A stretch of DNA of 64,000 nt from positions 26,113-90,112 of IMG/VR virus record IMGVR_UViG_3300023223_001361; one strand, 5' to 3'. Made by a program: the position numbers and the translations under genes. The DNA is from a virus. Below the pieces are notes generated by a model, which worked only from the letters and a program-made list of their open reading frames with translations, searched no databases and was not told the origin of the DNA. Of the stretch, positions 14,653 through 64,000 are shown in pieces (the first letter of the stretch is position 1; every line of letters begins with the position of its first letter).

Positions 14653-16629
14653 ATGGATACAAAAAAGATAGCAGAAATCGAAGCGAAGCAAGAGCATCTC
14701 AAATGGGTCAACAAAAAACTTAAGGAACACTTTGTTGGGATTGACAATATTATAGATGATGTCACAGATAGTCTTGAAGCTTGGTATGTCATGCCAGAAC
14801 TTCAGATGCGACCTACTGTTATTTGTTTGTGGGGTATGACTGGTGTCGGCAAAACTGATCTAGTAAATCGTTTGGTAAAACTTCTTGGTTGGGATGATTC
14901 CTTTTTAAAGATTGAACTAGGGGATAGGACAAATTATTTCAAATCTATTCTTTCTCAGTTGAAAGATCAGAGTAATATTATGAATGGTACTTCTGGTATT
15001 CTTTTATTTGATGAGATACAAAAATTTAGAACTGTTGATGAAGACAGAAAAGAAAAACCTGATGCCGGCTATAGTGATTTTTGGGAAATGCTTTCTGATG
15101 GTCATATCGACCAACGTCATATTATTAAGGATATTATTGATACCCTTTCAGCAAAGATACGTCAACAGGAAAAAAAGAAAGCTGAAAAAGCTTTAGGGGA
15201 AAACAAAGAAACAAGAAAGAAAGGAATAAATCAGAGTCTTCGAGAGATAATTGGCGGTGGTGATGATGAAGAAGATGTTGAGGAGGATGTTGATGTGAAA
15301 ATATATAGTTACGATGCTGAAAAAATAATTTATTATCTTGGTTTAGATAAGATGCATAGTTCTGATATTACTGGCATTGGTGAAAAAGAATTGGTAGAAT
15401 TTTGCAAAAAATTATTGAATAGCTCAAACAAACACTTCTTCGATATGTCAAAGACATTAGTATTTATTTCGGGAAATTTGGATGAAGCATACTCATTTGC
15501 AAAAACTGTTCAGGATGCTGATACACATGCAGATATTTATCATGAGCTTTCAAAAAAGATTAGTTTTCTTGATATTAAGGAAGCATTATTGCAAAGATTT
15601 CGTGCTGAGCAGATAGCAAGATTTGGGAATTTTCATTTAGTATATCCTTCTTTATCCAGTAAATCTTATAAGGAGATCATTAAAAGAAGATTAAAAACAG
15701 TTTCGAATAACGTTTTGGATAAACATAATATCGATGTTCAATATGATGATAGTATATACAAATATATTTATGATAATGGTGTTTTTCCCACACAAGGTAC
15801 ACGCCCTGTGTTTTCTACGATACAAATGGTTGTAGAGAATAATCTTCCAAAGATTTTATTAAATTGTTTCAAAACTTCTATTCTTAATGTAAAACTATTT
15901 TCCGAAGATGGGAAAATTGTTGCAAAGTATGGTGATAAGACTTTACATATTCCTTATGTTGGTCAAATTGATTCAATTCGGAAGAAGAAAACACTAGATC
16001 AACTTGCGATGGTTAGTGTGCATGAAGCTGGTCATGCTCTTGCAATAGGTAAACTCTTTGGTGTTGCACCATCACAGATTAGCGCACGAGCCTCTAAGTC
16101 TGATGTTGATGGATTTGTTTTCATGCCTTATATTAAAATGTCAAAGGGCAATATATTGAAAAAGATTATATGTGCTTTAGCTGGTCGAGTAGCAGAAGAA
16201 TTTTATTTTAAAGATGAAATGATATCTCCTGGTGCTGCTGAAGATATTGCACACGCAACAGAGATGGCTTGTCTCATGATGAACGATTGGGCAATGACAG
16301 AATGTAAAGATGGTATTCCTTATAGAACTGGTACAAGAAATTTTAATGAAAGAGGTAATTATATCCCAACACAGGATGAAATGTATTCCGATTCAACATT
16401 TATTATAAGAGAATCATATAAAAAAGCACAACAAATTATTGAAGAGCATTCGGAGTTGTTGAAAGATTTGGTTGAAATATTGATTCGAGATACTACTATT
16501 AGTCCTGAAAATTTTGTTATATTATGTGATGCTAATGGTATGGATAACATTCGAGTTATGAAAGATGGTGAAGAAATCTCTGACAGTTATTCGGATGCCT
16601 TAAAAGTGAAGCATGATCGCAAAAACTAA
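14653..16629 (+). CDS. AAA+ ATPase fused to M41 (FtsH-type) metalloprotease, no membrane anchor seen
   Basis: Walker A GMTGVGKT, Walker B LLFDE; HEAGH, LAGRVAEE, GAAEDIAHAT as in the FtsH protease domain. Confidence 0.85.
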   Translation: MDTKKIAEIEAKQEHLKWVNKKLKEHFVGIDNIIDDVTDSLEAWYVMPELQMRPTVICLWGMTGVGKTDLVNRLVKLLGWDDSFLKIELGDRTNYFKSILSQLKDQSNIMNGTSGILLFDEIQKFRTVDEDRKEKPDAGYSDFWEMLSDGHIDQRHIIKDIIDTLSAKIRQQEKKKAEKALGENKETRKKGINQSLREIIGGGDDEEDVEEDVDVKIYSYDAEKIIYYLGLDKMHSSDITGIGEKELVEFCKKLLNSSNKHFFDMSKTLVFISGNLDEAYSFAKTVQDADTHADIYHELSKKISFLDIKEALLQRFRAEQIARFGNFHLVYPSLSSKSYKEIIKRRLKTVSNNVLDKHNIDVQYDDSIYKYIYDNGVFPTQGTRPVFSTIQMVVENNLPKILLNCFKTSILNVKLFSEDGKIVAKYGDKTLHIPYVGQIDSIRKKKTLDQLAMVSVHEAGHALAIGKLFGVAPSQISARASKSDVDGFVFMPYIKMSKGNILKKIICALAGRVAEEFYFKDEMISPGAAEDIAHATEMACLMMNDWAMTECKDGIPYRTGTRNFNERGNYIPTQDEMYSDSTFIIRESYKKAQQIIEEHSELLKDLVEILIRDTTISPENFVILCDANGMDNIRVMKDGEEISDSYSDALKVKHDRKN

Positions 16630-40888: not shown

Positions 40889-40896
40889 TATAAATA
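40889..40896 (+). promoter_or_regulatory. late promoter heading the internal-protein operon
   Basis: Perfect TATAAATA after a small hairpin (CTGAGGAAATCCTTCAG). Confidence 0.75.
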
Positions 40897-57565: not shown

Positions 57566-58072
57566 ATGACTAAAATCGTTCATATTCATGAAGCACATAT
57601 TAGCCGGATTAAAAAGCAAATTCGAAATGGAACATATGAAATAGATTCCATTGCTGTGGCTCAAGCTACTTTGCGCTGGCTTGAAAATGAAATGGAATCG
57701 CTCAAGTCATTAAAGAATTTATACGATTTGGAACAATCGAAACTTCCGGGTTTTCGTAAAGGAACTGGAATAGGTCAGAGATTCACTCAGGCTATAGACA
57801 TTTTAGATCCTTCTTTTTGGAATAAAATGTCAAAATGGGATTTTGGTGTGATAGCTGGAAATTCAACTCAAGGTCGTGATATTAAAGGTTCATTTAATAC
57901 AATTGTTCTGGAAAAGGGTAAGAAAACAATAAGAATTTCTACCCCAAGAAACGGAAAGGATTCTTCTTTACCTTGGAAAGCGGTTTTGAGTAATGCTAAA
58001 AATGGTATAGAAAAGGAAACGAAAGAATTACCTTTTAGAAAATTATTAAAACAATTGAAGAAAATGCTATAA
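57566..58072 (+). CDS. protein with N-terminal FlgM-like (anti-sigma28) motif fused to unknown domain
   Basis: HISRIKKQIRNGTYEIDSIAVAQATL. Confidence 0.55.
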   Translation: MTKIVHIHEAHISRIKKQIRNGTYEIDSIAVAQATLRWLENEMESLKSLKNLYDLEQSKLPGFRKGTGIGQRFTQAIDILDPSFWNKMSKWDFGVIAGNSTQGRDIKGSFNTIVLEKGKKTIRISTPRNGKDSSLPWKAVLSNAKNGIEKETKELPFRKLLKQLKKML

Positions 58073-58102
58073 TAGAATCATTTAAGTATAGAGAAAAAGA
58101 AA

Positions 58103-58423
58103 ATGATTGAAAAAATTTTTGGTGATACGTTTTTTACTGATATGCTTGGTCAGAAAGTTCGAATTGGTGATTATATCGTATATCCAGGTCGTCGAGGCTC
58201 TTCTTGTTGGCAAAATATAGGTCGAGTTTTGAGAATGAAGAATCAAGCTCATCGTTGGAGAGACAACCACTTTACTGCTACTGTTAAAGTTCTTTCTGCT
58301 AATCAGAACTGGAGAACTCAACAATGGGAAGCAAACGATAAAGCTGGATATATTACAAGATTGGATAGAGTTGTAAAAATTGATAGTATTGGAGAAGAAC
58401 TCAGAGCGATACTTGCAAAATGA
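58103..58423 (+). CDS. hypothetical protein (KOW/SH3-like)
   Basis: DMLGQKVRIGDYIVY. Confidence 0.5.
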   Translation: MIEKIFGDTFFTDMLGQKVRIGDYIVYPGRRGSSCWQNIGRVLRMKNQAHRWRDNHFTATVKVLSANQNWRTQQWEANDKAGYITRLDRVVKIDSIGEELRAILAK

Positions 58424-58863: not shown

Positions 58864-59524
58864 AGAAACATTGTTTTTGACCATTTTACCAGGTATAGCA
58901 GTATTAGCAGCATTCGTGGGATTCATTTGGTGGCTAGGAAGCGGCTCATGGGCAACTTTAAGCACAGAACATAGTTGTTTAAGGGCATGGCACACATACA
59001 CCATAAGTGAGGAAATTGGAGATGTTGACCAGTGGCTAGGACTTGAAAACTGTATAAAACAACATCCAAAATATCAAGAGCTTTATAAAAAATATGCATT
59101 ACCCAAACTAAAAAAATCATGAAACTTAGTGATTTGGAAATTGGTGATAAAGTAGAGGATATTACAGTTGTATTAGATAAACCGAAATATGGATACATTT
59201 CACAAATTAACAAAAATAATATTTCTGTTATTGATAATGTCTCAAAAACGATAATTATAAATTTGGGAACAAAAGAAAAACCAATTGAATGGTGGACAGA
59301 TATTAATCACTATGAAAAAACTTGGATATTAGTAAAATGAGCGAAATATTTCAGAGACTATTAGAAAAAGCAAAAGAAGAATTTAATAAAATAATGGCTG
59401 CCCCTTGGACCAAGGGGAAAACACTTTTAAAAAATGAGAATATTACATTTAGTGGAATAATGTCTATAACACCAACAAGAGCAAAAGAACTCGCATATCG
59501 AGCTGGGTATTGGGTCCCAATATT

Positions 59525-59827
59525 ATGATATTTGCATTTGATATGGATGATACTGTTACAGCAATGCCAGAGTTTTTTGCAGTGCTAGCAAAGGCTTTAA
59601 GAGCTGATGGACATAAAATCTATATTATCACTGCAAGAGATGAAATATTAACAACCCAAACTGAACAATTTTTAAGTGATCAAGGAATAGAATATGATGG
59701 TGTGTATTTCACCTATGATAAGCAAGTTGTAGCGCGGAACCTTGGTGTAGATTTTGCATTCGATGATATGCCTTTATTTTATCAAGGCTTGACGTTGCCA
59801 TTTCGTATCATAAAGGTATCAAAATGA
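59525..59827 (+). CDS. small HAD-superfamily hydrolase
   Basis: FDMDDT, ITAR, K, FDD. Confidence 0.75.
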   Translation: MIFAFDMDDTVTAMPEFFAVLAKALRADGHKIYIITARDEILTTQTEQFLSDQGIEYDGVYFTYDKQVVARNLGVDFAFDDMPLFYQGLTLPFRIIKVSK

Positions 59828-60381
59828 GCATCGAGTCATTAAAGAAAAATGCTTATAAAAAAGGTTATATTAAAAAAGAAACGAAACCGACTAAAAAAGA
59901 ATTAACGGTCATCCAAACTATAGAAAATGAAGAACAAAGAAAACGTGAATTAATTGGTAGTATTGAAAATCTAAAAAAAGCTGAAACAAATGTCGACTGT
60001 TTGATTAAAATAGGAATGTCTGAAATCTTTGAAATATTTGATGAATATATTTCTAGTTTATCTGAAATAAAATGGAAAGTCAAGAAACCTCTATTTGAAA
60101 AAAGATATGTTTTTTATCAAATTAATGAAAATATTGAAATCCAATGTGAATCTTTTCTAGAAAACACAGAAGCTCATTTGGTTATAAAAGATGATTGTCA
60201 GGTATATTATATACAGACACATACAAATTTTTACAAAAAACTAGCAAAACATTATATTTTATCATTGAAAATAAATGAATTGGAGAAAATAAACAAAAAT
60301 AGAAATAGAATTGAAAAAGCGTTAAAATCTAATACTTTTCAAAGAAAAAAATGGTTCAAATTTGGTCGAAAAAATGATTGA
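59824..60381 (+). CDS. shared-leader family member 1
   Basis: MSIESLKKNAYKKGYI. Confidence 0.6.
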   Translation: MSIESLKKNAYKKGYIKKETKPTKKELTVIQTIENEEQRKRELIGSIENLKKAETNVDCLIKIGMSEIFEIFDEYISSLSEIKWKVKKPLFEKRYVFYQINENIEIQCESFLENTEAHLVIKDDCQVYYIQTHTNFYKKLAKHYILSLKINELEKINKNRNRIEKALKSNTFQRKKWFKFGRKND

Positions 60382-61204
60382 AGAATTATTAAAACATGCT
60401 CAAGCAAAAGGTTATATTTCAGAACGAAAAAAAATAGTGCCTGGACGTATGAAATGGTCTTATAGAGCCAGAGATATCCATAAACAAGACTATGATTTTT
60501 CAGATCCAGGAACATATGTTTTTAGCTTTGATAATATTTCTCATATGTTTCAAATACACGCTACCTTTTCATCTACCGTTGTTCGAGACGAAAACAATTC
60601 TTTGCTATATGACCATACTATAAAAAATAATTCTACTTTTCTAGAAATAAAAGATCATTTATCTCCTCAGGCGGAGGAAAAATATAAAAACATTAACCAG
60701 GAAAAATTAATCAAAAGATTTTCTGAAATGGTCGAAATAGTAGATGAACAAGGAAAGAGAGGTAGAACACTCAAAAAGAGTCAAAATTATCATTATAGTT
60801 ACATCTATAACTATAATAATCCAGGCAAACCTTATTGGTCGATCTCCCATAAAAATTATCCGAATTTCAATTTTGCAGTATATCCAGGAGAAGGATTTAA
60901 TACAATATATAAAAAATATGTTAGAGCTGACGCTTATATTGCATACCGAAATATTGCATACCAACGTGGTGAAGATTACATGGAAACCAAACAAAGACTC
61001 GGAATATTTCTGCATCAAACAGTAAATAATGACAAAATATTGGAATACATAAGTTTGTGTCAAGAAATGTTAGCAATAGCTGAGAAAGAAGAAAAAGACA
61101 GAACAAAAAAGTGCAAAGTATCCGAATGCACAAATCGGAAACACCAGGGAAATTTTATAGATAGTTATTGTGCTCCTTGTTATAGTGACAAAATAAGATC
61201 ATGA
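60374..61204 (+). CDS. shared-leader family member 2
   Basis: MIEELLKHAQAKGYI; C-terminal C..C...C..C. Confidence 0.65.
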   Translation: MIEELLKHAQAKGYISERKKIVPGRMKWSYRARDIHKQDYDFSDPGTYVFSFDNISHMFQIHATFSSTVVRDENNSLLYDHTIKNNSTFLEIKDHLSPQAEEKYKNINQEKLIKRFSEMVEIVDEQGKRGRTLKKSQNYHYSYIYNYNNPGKPYWSISHKNYPNFNFAVYPGEGFNTIYKKYVRADAYIAYRNIAYQRGEDYMETKQRLGIFLHQTVNNDKILEYISLCQEMLAIAEKEEKDRTKKCKVSECTNRKHQGNFIDSYCAPCYSDKIRS

Positions 61205-61566
61205 TAGACGAATTAATAAAGAAAGCAAGAGAGAAAGGATATATTACTGAAGAAAAGATTCTACCAACAGAAGTAGTACCTCTTAATACAAATTATTGGC
61301 CTGTTGACGTTTTAGAGGCAAGTAATACTATATCTCATTTACGAAATGAAATATTAGAAATAATCAGTCCTTGTCATCTTGATAAAATAGAAGCTCTGAT
61401 CTGGAATTCGAACATTGAGTATATACGTGAATTATTAAATGAATTAGAAAAATGTAAGCAACGACAAAAAACCCCTTCTTTATTTGGAGACAAAATTCAA
61501 GATGTCGGTGCATTTATAGATTTAATATGCAAATATAGATATCCTAAATGTGACAGTGATAAATGA
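61201..61566 (+). CDS. shared-leader family member 3
   Basis: MIDELIKKAREKGYI. Confidence 0.65.
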   Translation: MIDELIKKAREKGYITEEKILPTEVVPLNTNYWPVDVLEASNTISHLRNEILEIISPCHLDKIEALIWNSNIEYIRELLNELEKCKQRQKTPSLFGDKIQDVGAFIDLICKYRYPKCDSDK

Positions 61567-62051
61567 TAGACGAATTAATAAAGAAAGCAAGAGAGAAAGG
61601 ATATATTGCATCAGTGCCGTCGAAATTGATGTCATCAGTGCCGAAAGACACGGTGAAGTGGGATGTTCGAGAATTAACATGTGAACGGACTACTGCGCCT
61701 TTAGGGGTACTTCGTCTCGTCTTCACTCATCGAGGATTTAAAAATTATAAATTTCTAATCCATCCAGCTCTAGGGTGCAAAAGACTTTACAAATTATGTA
61801 ATGCCGGTTTTAAATATAAAGACATAGAAGCGTATGATTCTTCTATTGATACGATTGAAACTATTAAAGCTCGATTAGAAACAGATGATGATTCTATAGC
61901 TGAAAGTTACATAAAAATGTGTAAAAGGATACTTTCATATGTAAAAAATACATATAATACTCCGAAGAAAGATTCATCCAGTCTCTTTTCGGAACATAAT
62001 TTAACTCCAAAGGATTTTTGGGAAGAAATATTTTCGGTAACAAATAAATGA
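61563..62051 (+). CDS. shared-leader family member 4
   Basis: MIDELIKKAREKGYI; first 45 nt identical to member 3. Confidence 0.65.
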   Translation: MIDELIKKAREKGYIASVPSKLMSSVPKDTVKWDVRELTCERTTAPLGVLRLVFTHRGFKNYKFLIHPALGCKRLYKLCNAGFKYKDIEAYDSSIDTIETIKARLETDDDSIAESYIKMCKRILSYVKNTYNTPKKDSSSLFSEHNLTPKDFWEEIFSVTNK

Positions 62052-62389
62052 TAGATGAACTGATAAAGAGAGCTCAAGAAAAGGGATACATTCCTGAAGC
62101 AAAATCACCACAGGCAAAAACGGAACTTCCCATACTCGAAATGCCCATCCCTCAAGATCCAACGCTCGCCACATCTGATTTACAGAAACGTATATTAAAA
62201 ATAGTAGACACGAAACGACCAGGTAAAATAGAAGACGTGATTATTAATTCATCTGTTAAAATGATTCTTGGAATGATAAATGAACTAAGGAAATTTCAAG
62301 AAAATTATGGAGCTGTTTGTTTCGATGGAGAAGAAATCAAAAATATTGATGCATTTATCCATTTAATACTTGAATATAGAGATATTTAA
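62048..62389 (+). CDS. shared-leader family member 5 (paralogue of member 3)
   Basis: MIDELIKRAQEKGYI; body aligns with member 3 (KIE..I.NS...NEL...G..I....AFI.LI..YR). Confidence 0.65.
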   Translation: MIDELIKRAQEKGYIPEAKSPQAKTELPILEMPIPQDPTLATSDLQKRILKIVDTKRPGKIEDVIINSSVKMILGMINELRKFQENYGAVCFDGEEIKNIDAFIHLILEYRDI

Positions 62390-63326: not shown

Positions 63327-63334
63327 TATTTATA
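63327..63334 (-). promoter_or_regulatory. late promoter (minus strand)
   Basis: TATAAATA on the reverse complement. Confidence 0.7.
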
Positions 63335-63495: not shown

Positions 63496-63558
63496 CTCTT
63501 TGATGCCTACACTTTGCTCTTTGATGCCTACACTTTACTCTTTGATGCCTACACTGTG
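63496..63558. repeat. three tandem 21-bp direct repeats
   Basis: CTCTTTGATGCCTACACT(TTG/TTA/GTG) x3. Confidence 0.9.
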
Positions 63559-64000
63559 CCAGCTAAGCGTGCGACGGAAGGCGGCTCCAATTTTTTCCCG
63601 CAGGATTCGAACGAGTATTCGTTTCATTACTTGGACTGTCCAGGTTGCAACATCGAATATTCGTTCTATAGGCTCCAGAAATTACTTGACAAAACTCCCA
63701 AACTATGATTCCAAAATACATGAGAAAAACTTAGCATGCCCTTTGCATTAGCAATTTTCGTACCAACTATATATTTGGAATGAATCTTGCAATTGCAAGA
63801 ACTGTTCAGAACGAATATTCATTCCACCTAAAGGCACAAAATATTATGAATGTCAAGTTTGATCCAAAAATGTTGAAAGGACATTATGATCCGAATGACA
63901 AAATTCTTCGGATCCTTAGAGATTCGGAACTCACAGATGATGAAATAGAATTACTCTTAGCTGCTTACTTTCTAGCCTTTTCTACTACATATCCAAAGAA

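Follow-up and report, generated by a model that had tools for sequence, protein, structure and literature searches.

Genes and family members

The analysed stretch of 64,000 nucleotides (the window) belongs to a T4-like phage genome of 160 kb. Between positions 59824 and 62389 its plus strand carries five coupled genes, which all open with the same module of 15 residues and share the consensus M-I-[DE]-E-L-[IL]-K-x-A-x-x-K-G-Y-I. The first gene, M1 (59824–60381, +), codes for a basic protein of 185 residues (pI 9.4). Its module comprises residues 2–16, with one additional residue after the methionine, and is encoded by codons 2–16 (59827–59871, +). In M2 (60374–61204, +; 276 residues) the module begins at the ATG at 60374 and not at the TTG upstream (60362), and its coding tract (60374–60418, +) is 73% identical in nucleotides to that of M3. 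M3 (61201–61566, +) is an acidic protein of 121 residues with a module-coding tract of 45 nt at 61201–61245 (+). M4 (61563–62051, +; 162 residues) carries its tract, also 45 nt, at 61563–61607 (+). M5 (62048–62389, +; 113 residues) is the final gene of the plus-strand unit; its tract (62048–62092, +) shows 78% nucleotide identity to that of M3. The original prediction had described five ORFs with common N-termini at this locus, and the ORF coordinates agree.

A scan of the genome (2348 six-frame segments) with a profile of the module, which had been proposed earlier, matched only seven ORFs: the five genes of the array and two beyond the window, M6 (genome 92703–93188) and M7 (genome 104908–105354), the latter directly upstream of the primase gene. 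The five members listed originally are all real; the family as a whole, however, comprises seven at three loci of this one T4-like phage genome. The module is N-terminal in 7 of 7 members, starting at residue 1–5 of the ORF. Its sharing is far above chance, because a leave-one-out HMM search of the same 2348 segments regained every omitted member as the top non-training match (E-values from 1e-8 to 0.015), with each match beginning at residue 1 or 2 of the ORF. With residues 1–24 of M7 as the sole query, the best non-self matches were M3, M5 and M4.

Several look-alikes were rejected. M0, a 63-residue ORF two genes upstream of M1 (59337–59528, +), had been thought to end in a related module, but its C-terminal 'RAKELAYRAGYW' is not significant (i-E ~900). 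The N-terminus of M0 slightly resembles M7, again without significance (E 0.78); judged by its sequence, M0 might at most be a degenerate relative. A 100-residue ORF elsewhere in the genome (L102:2544–2846) opens with M-N-I-D-E-L-I-K and is not significant either (i-E 7.6), and another N-terminal look-alike (L094) is no more than chance would produce.

Gene context and expression signals

M3, M4 and M5 each start on an ATGA that overlaps the stop codon of the gene before, M1 and M2 share 8 nt, and the start of M1 overlaps the stop of an upstream HAD-like gene, likewise as ATGA. This bears out the overlapping, coupled arrangement described before. M3, M4 and M5 are without a Shine-Dalgarno sequence, and the first codons (ATG ATA GA) double as the stop codon of the upstream gene. 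Such features would suit a translation-initiation cassette that acts at the level of RNA for coupled genes of this kind, with the peptide as a by-product. We consider this very improbable, since the conservation extends to codons 12–15, which we judge to be past the reach of the initiating ribosome, and since synonymous sites are free to vary while the amino acids are kept. The upstream contexts of M1, M6 and M7 also differ.

Neighbours of the family members include a dCMP deaminase, a HAD-like phosphatase and the primase. At its downstream end, M5 converges on late minus-strand virion genes. The earlier statement that no late promoter is visible holds: exact copies of TATAAATA occur only at 40889 and 47436 on the plus strand and at 63327–63334 on the minus strand, and the plus strand is free of them from 47443 to the array. 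Promoter-like matches inside the array score 9–10 out of 12 and are located within coding sequence. The scanned region as a whole contains 51 of them, compared with 39.0 ± 7.4 in shuffles (about 1.6 standard deviations above), and no plus-strand terminator was found in it. The array proteins are probably early or middle in timing.

Selection on the module and its predicted shape

The module peptide is under purifying selection. Between M3 and M5 the module gives pN = 0.07 and pS = 0.94, compared with pN = 0.39 and pS = 0.59 for the body. Their module tracts differ at 10 nucleotides, 7 of which are synonymous, and 13 of the 15 residues are kept, six of them by codons that differ synonymously. 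Outside the pair M3/M4 the tracts have just 28–35 of 45 nucleotides in common, and the peptide is nonetheless retained. The view of the module as a unit of its own is thus supported, and selection on it acts at the protein level.

In all members the module ends with K-G-Y-[IL]. AF2 models of M3 and M4 place a helix at residues 2–11, followed by a coil of approximately 25 residues and then the body. Since the pLDDT of these models is only about 46 (low confidence), this helix–linker–body picture is weak, as are the differences in fold described below. The hydrophobic moment of the module helix is low in M6 (0.15) and ranges from 0.35 to 0.59 in the other members. The 20 residues C-terminal to the module contain 1–5 prolines and 4–9 charged residues per member.

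A motif that lies exposed at the very N-terminus, ahead of a stretch modelled as coil, would also fit a regulatory recognition tag, e.g. an N-terminal degron that sets the same lifetime for a group of early proteins. Its reader could be a host protease or the protease-like AAA+ protein which the phage encodes (window 14653–16629; PHROG 'ATP-dependent protease'). This is not known as a usual gene of T4-like phages. Nevertheless we regard a degron as improbable: both the AAA+ protein and the module are known from just this genome, and the module resembles no degron known to us.

Paralogue classes of the bodies

The bodies fall into at least four classes without detectable cross-class similarity. 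Class A consists of M2, M4 and M6, whose bodies are mutually paralogous (E-values from 1e-6 to 1e-18), and class B of the paralogues M3 and M5. M1 constitutes a class of its own (C), because its body has no detectable relative, and M7 likewise belongs to its own class. The original prediction had called the bodies mostly unrelated and only M3 and M5 similar throughout. Neither statement stands, since the bodies of M2, M4 and M6 are all paralogues of one another, and five of the seven members thus form two ordinary paralogue groups that arose by duplication.

M2 contains the module, what looks like a degenerate class-A body (residues ~17–130) and a full class-A body (residues ~135–276). The score of its first half against the class-A body was equalled by 7 of 500 shuffles. 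A cluster of four cysteines lies at the C-terminus, and the HMM finds one module only, with no second, internal relic. In the low-confidence AF2 models the body of M4 has three strands together with helices and that of M3 is all-helical; an Atlas model of the M7 body is a β-barrel or sandwich. Structural look-alikes in the Atlas were weak only, and no Pfam or PHROG family was assigned to any of the bodies.

These data bear on the possibility that all seven genes are full-length paralogues of a single gene, the bodies having diverged beyond recognition and the helix being that part of a common fold which is under the strongest constraint. Five of the seven members do belong to two clear duplication groups, phage ORFans evolve fast, and the body pN has already reached 0.38–0.39 within classes. 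M2, M3, M4 and M6 each have a tryptophan 28–33 residues after the start, and the body-profile scores of M5 against class A and of M4 against class B were equalled by 5 of 300 shuffles. Between classes, however, Smith-Waterman and HMM comparisons of the bodies alone stay at the level of shuffles (z ≤ 2.1), whereas within classes they are highly significant, and hhalign confines its cross-class alignments to about residues 1–18. The module is hence borne by dissimilar body classes, as had been predicted; full-length paralogy holds within A and B and fails between classes at the depth of the profiles used. The predicted secondary structures differ as well (strands with helices, all-helical, β-barrel). 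Moreover, the histories of module and body disagree, because the module DNA of M4 is identical to that of another class. Since the body profiles are shallow, with 2–3 sequences each, all bodies may yet share a deep common origin; we rate descent of all seven from one gene as unlikely, though worth keeping in mind. Motifs that seemed by eye to join M1 and class B to class A were unsupported in shuffle tests. They comprise a Y-I-x-T-H stretch, an A-F-x-I-D stretch and the tryptophan near residue 30.

The identical tract of M3 and M4

The tracts 61201–61245 and 61563–61607 are 100% identical over 45 nt and mismatched at either flank. The identity followed by divergence noted before is confirmed, and it joins a class-B gene (M3) to a class-A gene (M4). 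Identity at 45 of 45 nucleotides despite different body classes indicates the footprint of a gene conversion bounded by the module. It makes the pair a small, clean case of exchange limited to a coding module. Of the earlier idea that effector domains are swapped like cassettes, one part is retained, namely at least one exchange that ends at the module border; no effector domain was identifiable. This is the one footprint of exchange between otherwise unrelated sequences in this single genome.

Such a footprint raises the question whether the module works mainly as DNA, i.e. as 45 nt of in-phase homology that let T4-type recombination swap, duplicate or delete bodies. In addition to M3/M4, the location of the members in regions of small ORFan genes would agree with this, and in T4-type phages shuffling of this sort does take place through PeSL repeats (PMC2839356, PMC4122927). 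The remaining pairs argue against it: with 28–35 of 45 nucleotides in common they are poor substrates for homologous recombination, and saturated synonymous sites combined with a low pN point to selection on the protein. Besides, M6 and M7 are dispersed single copies. A role mainly as DNA, which would make the module a coding counterpart to the intergenic PeSL cassettes, has a low probability in our opinion.

Searches for relatives

Searches with blastn and tblastn against GenBank phages, with peptide patterns in IMG/VR, and by word index in 5.8 billion proteins (queries M4, M3 residues 1–40 and M7) returned self or nothing. An exhaustive HMMER search of 1.84 billion proteins with the class-A profile yielded no relative, and sequence searches of the PDB were empty. 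Degenerate DNA patterns of the module gave no match in IMG/VR with an ATG anchor, 17 without it and 16 in JGI metagenomes, none of them related; all were isolated or inside unrelated ORFs, and none recurred within a locus. The closest capsid-protein relatives of the phage are just 53–59% identical. The family appears to be lineage-specific and is known so far from one metagenomic genome, which limits the value of the conclusions drawn from it.

Proposed role of the module

The observed anatomy of the genes, their paralogy classes, the purifying selection on the module peptide and the DNA identity that stops at the module border lead us to propose a lineage-specific family whose proteins, early or middle in timing, carry a tethered N-terminal docking helix for one common partner. 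We prefer this account, while holding it tentatively, at somewhat less than even probability. The weak structure models, the shallow profiles, the lack of homologues in the collections searched and the low hydrophobic moment of the M6 helix speak against it. Each protein would consist of the 15-residue module, forming a helix that is short, mostly amphipathic and capped by K-G-Y-[IL], of a variable stretch with prolines and many charged residues, and of a body that falls into one of the four or more classes. Growth of the family would have occurred by tandem duplication (M2/M4/M6 and M3/M5), by internal duplication of the body in M2 and by recombination limited to module DNA. Most likely it is as a peptide that the module acts, namely as a tethered helix for docking or recognition, and it may recruit the different bodies to a single partner from phage or host. 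We infer both the docking role and the single partner.

A more specific version of the docking account takes the K-G-Y-[IL] helix as the address of a second targeting system, separate from capsid targeting, in which one reader recognizes the tag on many unrelated small proteins and module-bounded recombination places new bodies under this address. We regard this as rather unlikely. A candidate reader would be a hub of phage or host, such as a component of the replisome or of RNA polymerase, or the soluble AAA+ protease of the phage.

The small early genes of T4-like phages are mostly without known function. If true, a tag maintained by selection would tie seven of them to a single pathway, and the 15-residue peptide could be used as bait for the common partner.

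Comparison with known systems

Sigma70_r1_1 (PF03979) is the sole Pfam family that recurred for the module. Residues 2–20 of M3 align to positions 7–25 of the profile, with the common pattern L-I-x-x-x-x-x-x-G-Y-[IL]-T-x-E-x-I. The scores (12–17 bits) stay below the Pfam gathering cut-off of 22.5; the best were 16.7 bits for a fragment of M3 and 14.7 bits in the six-frame genome search. Matches are restricted to M3 and M4 (none for M1, M2, M5 and M6) and cover approximately 20 of 81 positions, within 4–25. The three-helix domain of region 1.1 is absent, because the sequence after G-Y-I is variable and contains prolines. We rejected mimicry of sigma-70 region 1.1 and treat the match as a resemblance only.

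Polymorphic toxin and effector systems combine a constant N-terminal part with variable C-terminal parts (PMC3482391). The family shares this layout, and recombination at the junction is plausible here, too. Its constant part, however, has just 15 residues, whereas theirs is a trafficking domain. All copies are full genes that have a start and a module of their own, so the array contains no silent cassettes, and no toxin or immunity domains were identified in the members.

PeSL cassettes are intergenic promoter/stem-loop repeats through which modules are shuffled in T4-type phages (PMC2839356, PMC4122927). Like them, the module is a short repeat linked to ORFan genes in a T4-type genome, and one pair (M3/M4) has a recombination footprint bounded by the repeat. 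In contrast to PeSLs with their promoter and terminator, the module is in-frame coding sequence and shows no clear signal of either kind; what is conserved in it is the peptide, not the DNA.

The sequence of the module is unrelated to the phage's own capsid-targeting leader, as had been noted originally. Capsid-targeting sequences (CTS) end with the prohead-protease site [LI]-x-E, where they are cut. The module ends with K-G-Y-[IL] instead and lacks this site there; I-[DE]-E is found only at residues 2–4 of M2–M5 and is missing from M1, M6 and M7. Unlike CTS genes, the module genes have no late promoter and lie among genes of nucleotide metabolism and replication, not among head genes. Nevertheless, the CTS of the T4 internal proteins is also a short N-terminal peptide on diverse, fast-evolving proteins of a T4-type phage (PMC3012670). 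In both cases the tag alone is conserved and several tagged genes are adjacent. If our proposal is true, the one-tag, many-cargoes logic of the CTS would be used a second time, outside the capsid.

Gene array and shared module

The virus record comprises 160,399 bp with a G+C content of 34% and direct terminal repeats. Judged by its capsid, scaffold, split polymerase, helicase and primase genes, the phage is T4-like. On the plus strand, five ORFs lie back to back without gaps between positions 59824 and 62389: M1 (59824–60381, 185 aa), M2 (60374–61204, 276 aa), M3 (61201–61566, 121 aa), M4 (61563–62051, 162 aa) and M5 (62048–62389, 113 aa). All five proteins begin with a 15-residue module of the consensus M-I-[DE]-E-L-[IL]-K-x-A-x-x-K-G-Y-I, with one extra residue after the methionine in M1. 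The module of M2 starts at ATG 60374; the ORF lister instead gives the upstream TTG 60362 as the start.

The starts of M3, M4 and M5 form ATGA overlaps with the preceding stop codon, and M1 and M2 overlap by 8 nt. ATGA coupling also joins three upstream genes: a 73-aa ORF, a 63-aa ORF (59337–59528) and, between the latter and M1, a HAD-superfamily phosphatase-like gene (59525–59827, 100 aa) with an N-terminal D-x-D-x-T motif, weak Pfam HAD matches and a match to PHROG 4256 at E = 2e-11. Eight successive genes (59119–62389) are thus chained by stop/start overlaps, with ATGA at six of seven junctions and the 8-nt overlap at the other. Together with the lack of Shine-Dalgarno sequences at M3–M5, this chain suggests obligatory translational coupling of the whole unit.

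A repeat finder grouped the first 45 nt of the module genes into a four-copy family. The tracts of M3 (61201–61245) and M4 (61563–61607) are, as originally noted, 100% identical, with a mismatch at either flank. A module profile was searched against the whole genome (2348 six-frame segments, each at least 30 aa). It matched solely module-bearing ORFs (E = 1e-6 to 1e-10); the next score (E about 0.1) turned out to belong to a further family member. Two members lie outside the window. M6 (genome 92703–93188, L084:7704–8186 on a piece of the same genome; 161 aa) lies roughly 2.6 kb beyond the end of the window, as the lone member within a further cluster of small plus-strand ORFan genes. M7 (genome 104908–105354, L102:3409–3855 on another such piece; 148 aa) carries a module ending in K-G-Y-L and shares 16 nt with the beginning of the DNA primase gene (L102:3840–4880). 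In leave-one-out tests each member was the best non-training match (E = 1e-8 to 0.015), with the match in every case at the opening residues of the ORF, and the first 24 residues of M7 as lone query gave M3, M5 and M4 as best non-self matches (E = 0.012–0.17). The module is real, statistically solid and broader than first noted: all five genes of the original observation carry it, and the family extends to seven members at three loci with at least four body classes. A 100-aa ORF (L102:2544–2846, genome 104043–104345) starts with M-N-I-D-E-L-I-K and then diverges without K-G-Y-I. Its match is not significant, and the resemblance could reflect either a decayed family member or chance.

Protein bodies and predicted structure

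The bodies following the module had been described as mostly unrelated, with similarity throughout only between M3 and M5. The latter pair is indeed 39% identical over its full length (E = 1e-19), but M4 and M6 also share 36% identity over 133 residues (E = 1e-18) and each of them resembles the C-terminal half of M2 (E = 1e-6 to 1e-10), so neither statement can be maintained. The first half of M2 marginally resembles its second half and the M6 body (in both comparisons, 7 of 500 shuffles score as high); M2 thus probably holds two class-A bodies in tandem. Within its last 30 residues (61108–61201) M2 contains four cysteines (C-x4-C ... C-x2-C), absent from M4 and M6, which could form a small zinc knuckle.

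Between classes, hhalign of class A (M2, M4, M6) against class B (M3, M5), and of each against M1, aligned nothing beyond residues 1–18. Body-only Smith-Waterman scores stayed within the shuffle range (z at most 2.1, compared with 10 to 25 within classes), and body HMMs gave no significant score across classes. Since no similarity beyond the module was detected between classes, the proteins appear to fall into at least four body classes: A, B, M1 and M7. That all seven are instead deeply diverged full-length paralogues seems to us rather unlikely, while the shallow profiles and poor structure models leave room for it. AF2 models of M4 and M3 reached mean pLDDT values of only 46.6 and 45.6. At this low confidence, both show a helix (residues 2–11), about 25 residues without regular structure and then the body, predicted as three strands plus helices in M4 and as all-helical in M3. 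The ESM Atlas model of M7, also of low confidence, has a β-barrel or sandwich body, which tail-tube-like and PilZ-like models resemble at a TM score of about 0.5. Directly behind the module, the next 20 residues contain 1–5 prolines and 4–9 charged residues.

Selection and exchange

Between M3 and M5, 13 of 15 module residues are kept, and six of the corresponding codons differ synonymously. The module has pN = 0.07 and pS = 0.94, as against 0.39 and 0.59 for the bodies. By our own count 7 of the 10 nucleotide differences in the module are synonymous; the binomial chance of at least seven is about 0.004, assuming that roughly a quarter of random changes are synonymous. The low pN with high pS and the excess of synonymous changes indicate that purifying selection acts on the peptide, not just on the DNA. 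An RNA-level initiation cassette is accordingly very improbable, as synonymous sites change freely and conservation reaches codon 15.

The M4 body belongs to class A, yet its module is identical over 45 nt to that of the class-B member M3; M6, the closest body relative of M4, differs at 7 of 15 module residues. The identity and its borders are directly visible, and from the disagreement between module and body histories we infer at least one gene conversion or crossover confined to the module. With its copies 362 bp apart, the 45-nt direct repeat should likewise permit array units to be lost or gained in frame. The M3/M4 tract would fit a module serving mainly as a DNA-level recombination handle. 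Most copies, however, share only 28–35 of 45 nt yet keep the peptide, and we consider this role improbable.

Genomic context

The array forms the end of a long plus-strand block. The closest promoter-like site ahead of the array (58046–58073) lies upstream of the gene at 58103. Promoter-like matches within the array are weaker (9–10 of 12), located in coding sequence and not clearly above shuffle expectation, and no plus-strand terminator-like site was found in the scanned region. The exact late promoter TATAAATA occurs only at 40889 and 47436 (plus strand) and at 63327–63334 (minus strand). The minus-strand copy precedes two converging minus-strand genes, one with weak tail-fibre or virion-protein matches. 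Just beyond it, non-coding positions 63496–63559 hold three tandem copies of a 21-nt unit (93% matches). Family neighbors are a dCMP deaminase, the HAD-like phosphatase, small ORFans and the primase, which suggests early or middle expression.

Relatives and known families

Blastn and tblastn against GenBank phages found nothing similar. The nearest capsid proteins to those of this phage are only 53–59% identical. A peptide-pattern search of IMG/VR with M3, M4 and a neighboring late gene yielded no relative. A word-indexed search of 5.8 billion proteins with M4, M3 residues 1–40 and M7 returned only the queries themselves, and exhaustive HMMER with the class-A profile against 1.84 billion representatives only the three query proteins. 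Degenerate module DNA patterns gave no ATG-anchored and 17 unanchored matches in IMG/VR and 16 anchored matches in JGI metagenomes. These were dismissed: each is isolated or lies inside an unrelated ORF, and no locus holds a second copy. An unrelated phage ORF recurred on IMG/VR and JGI contigs (L090, L101, L104, L108, L110, L113–L115), found only through its fit to the degenerate pattern. Internally it contains M-I-E-x-F-R-x-x-A-x-x-K-G-Y-I-[IV]-K-K-A, after which comes a conserved tail that is basic and hydrophobic.

Pfam and PHROGs held no family for any module-bearing body, and PDB sequence searches were empty. The sole recurring Pfam lead was Sigma70_r1_1, matching M3 (residues 2–20 to profile positions 7–25, 14.7–16.7 bits) and M4 (12.4 bits) but no other member. 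Membership was rejected, since all scores are below the cut-off of 22.5 bits and the resemblance covers one helix and a turn. The module family is so far confined to one metagenomic genome.

Proposed role and comparison with known systems

On the best-supported reading, which we propose tentatively, the members of a lineage-specific family share the module as a helix for docking or recognition. Tethered to each body at the N-terminus, the helix would dock or be recognized, and the different bodies would thereby be delivered to one common partner. A shared degron or regulatory tag, with the AAA+ protease of the phage itself as a conceivable reader, is about as improbable as the recombination handle.

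Among known systems, the one nearest in logic to a docking helix is the capsid targeting sequence of T4, a short N-terminal tag that is all that diverse internal proteins have in common (PMC3012670). The module differs from it in sequence and gene neighborhood, has no protease site, and its array lacks a late promoter. PeSL cassettes, known as recombination handles in the hyperplastic regions of T4-type phages, lie between genes and consist of a promoter and a terminator (PMC2839356, PMC4122927), whereas the module repeat is the first 45 nt of genes. Polymorphic toxin systems (PMC3482391) likewise combine a constant N-terminus with variable C-termini, but they differ in scale, in their domains and in having silent cassettes. 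The family may represent another case in which diverse phage proteins carry a short tag for targeting or docking.
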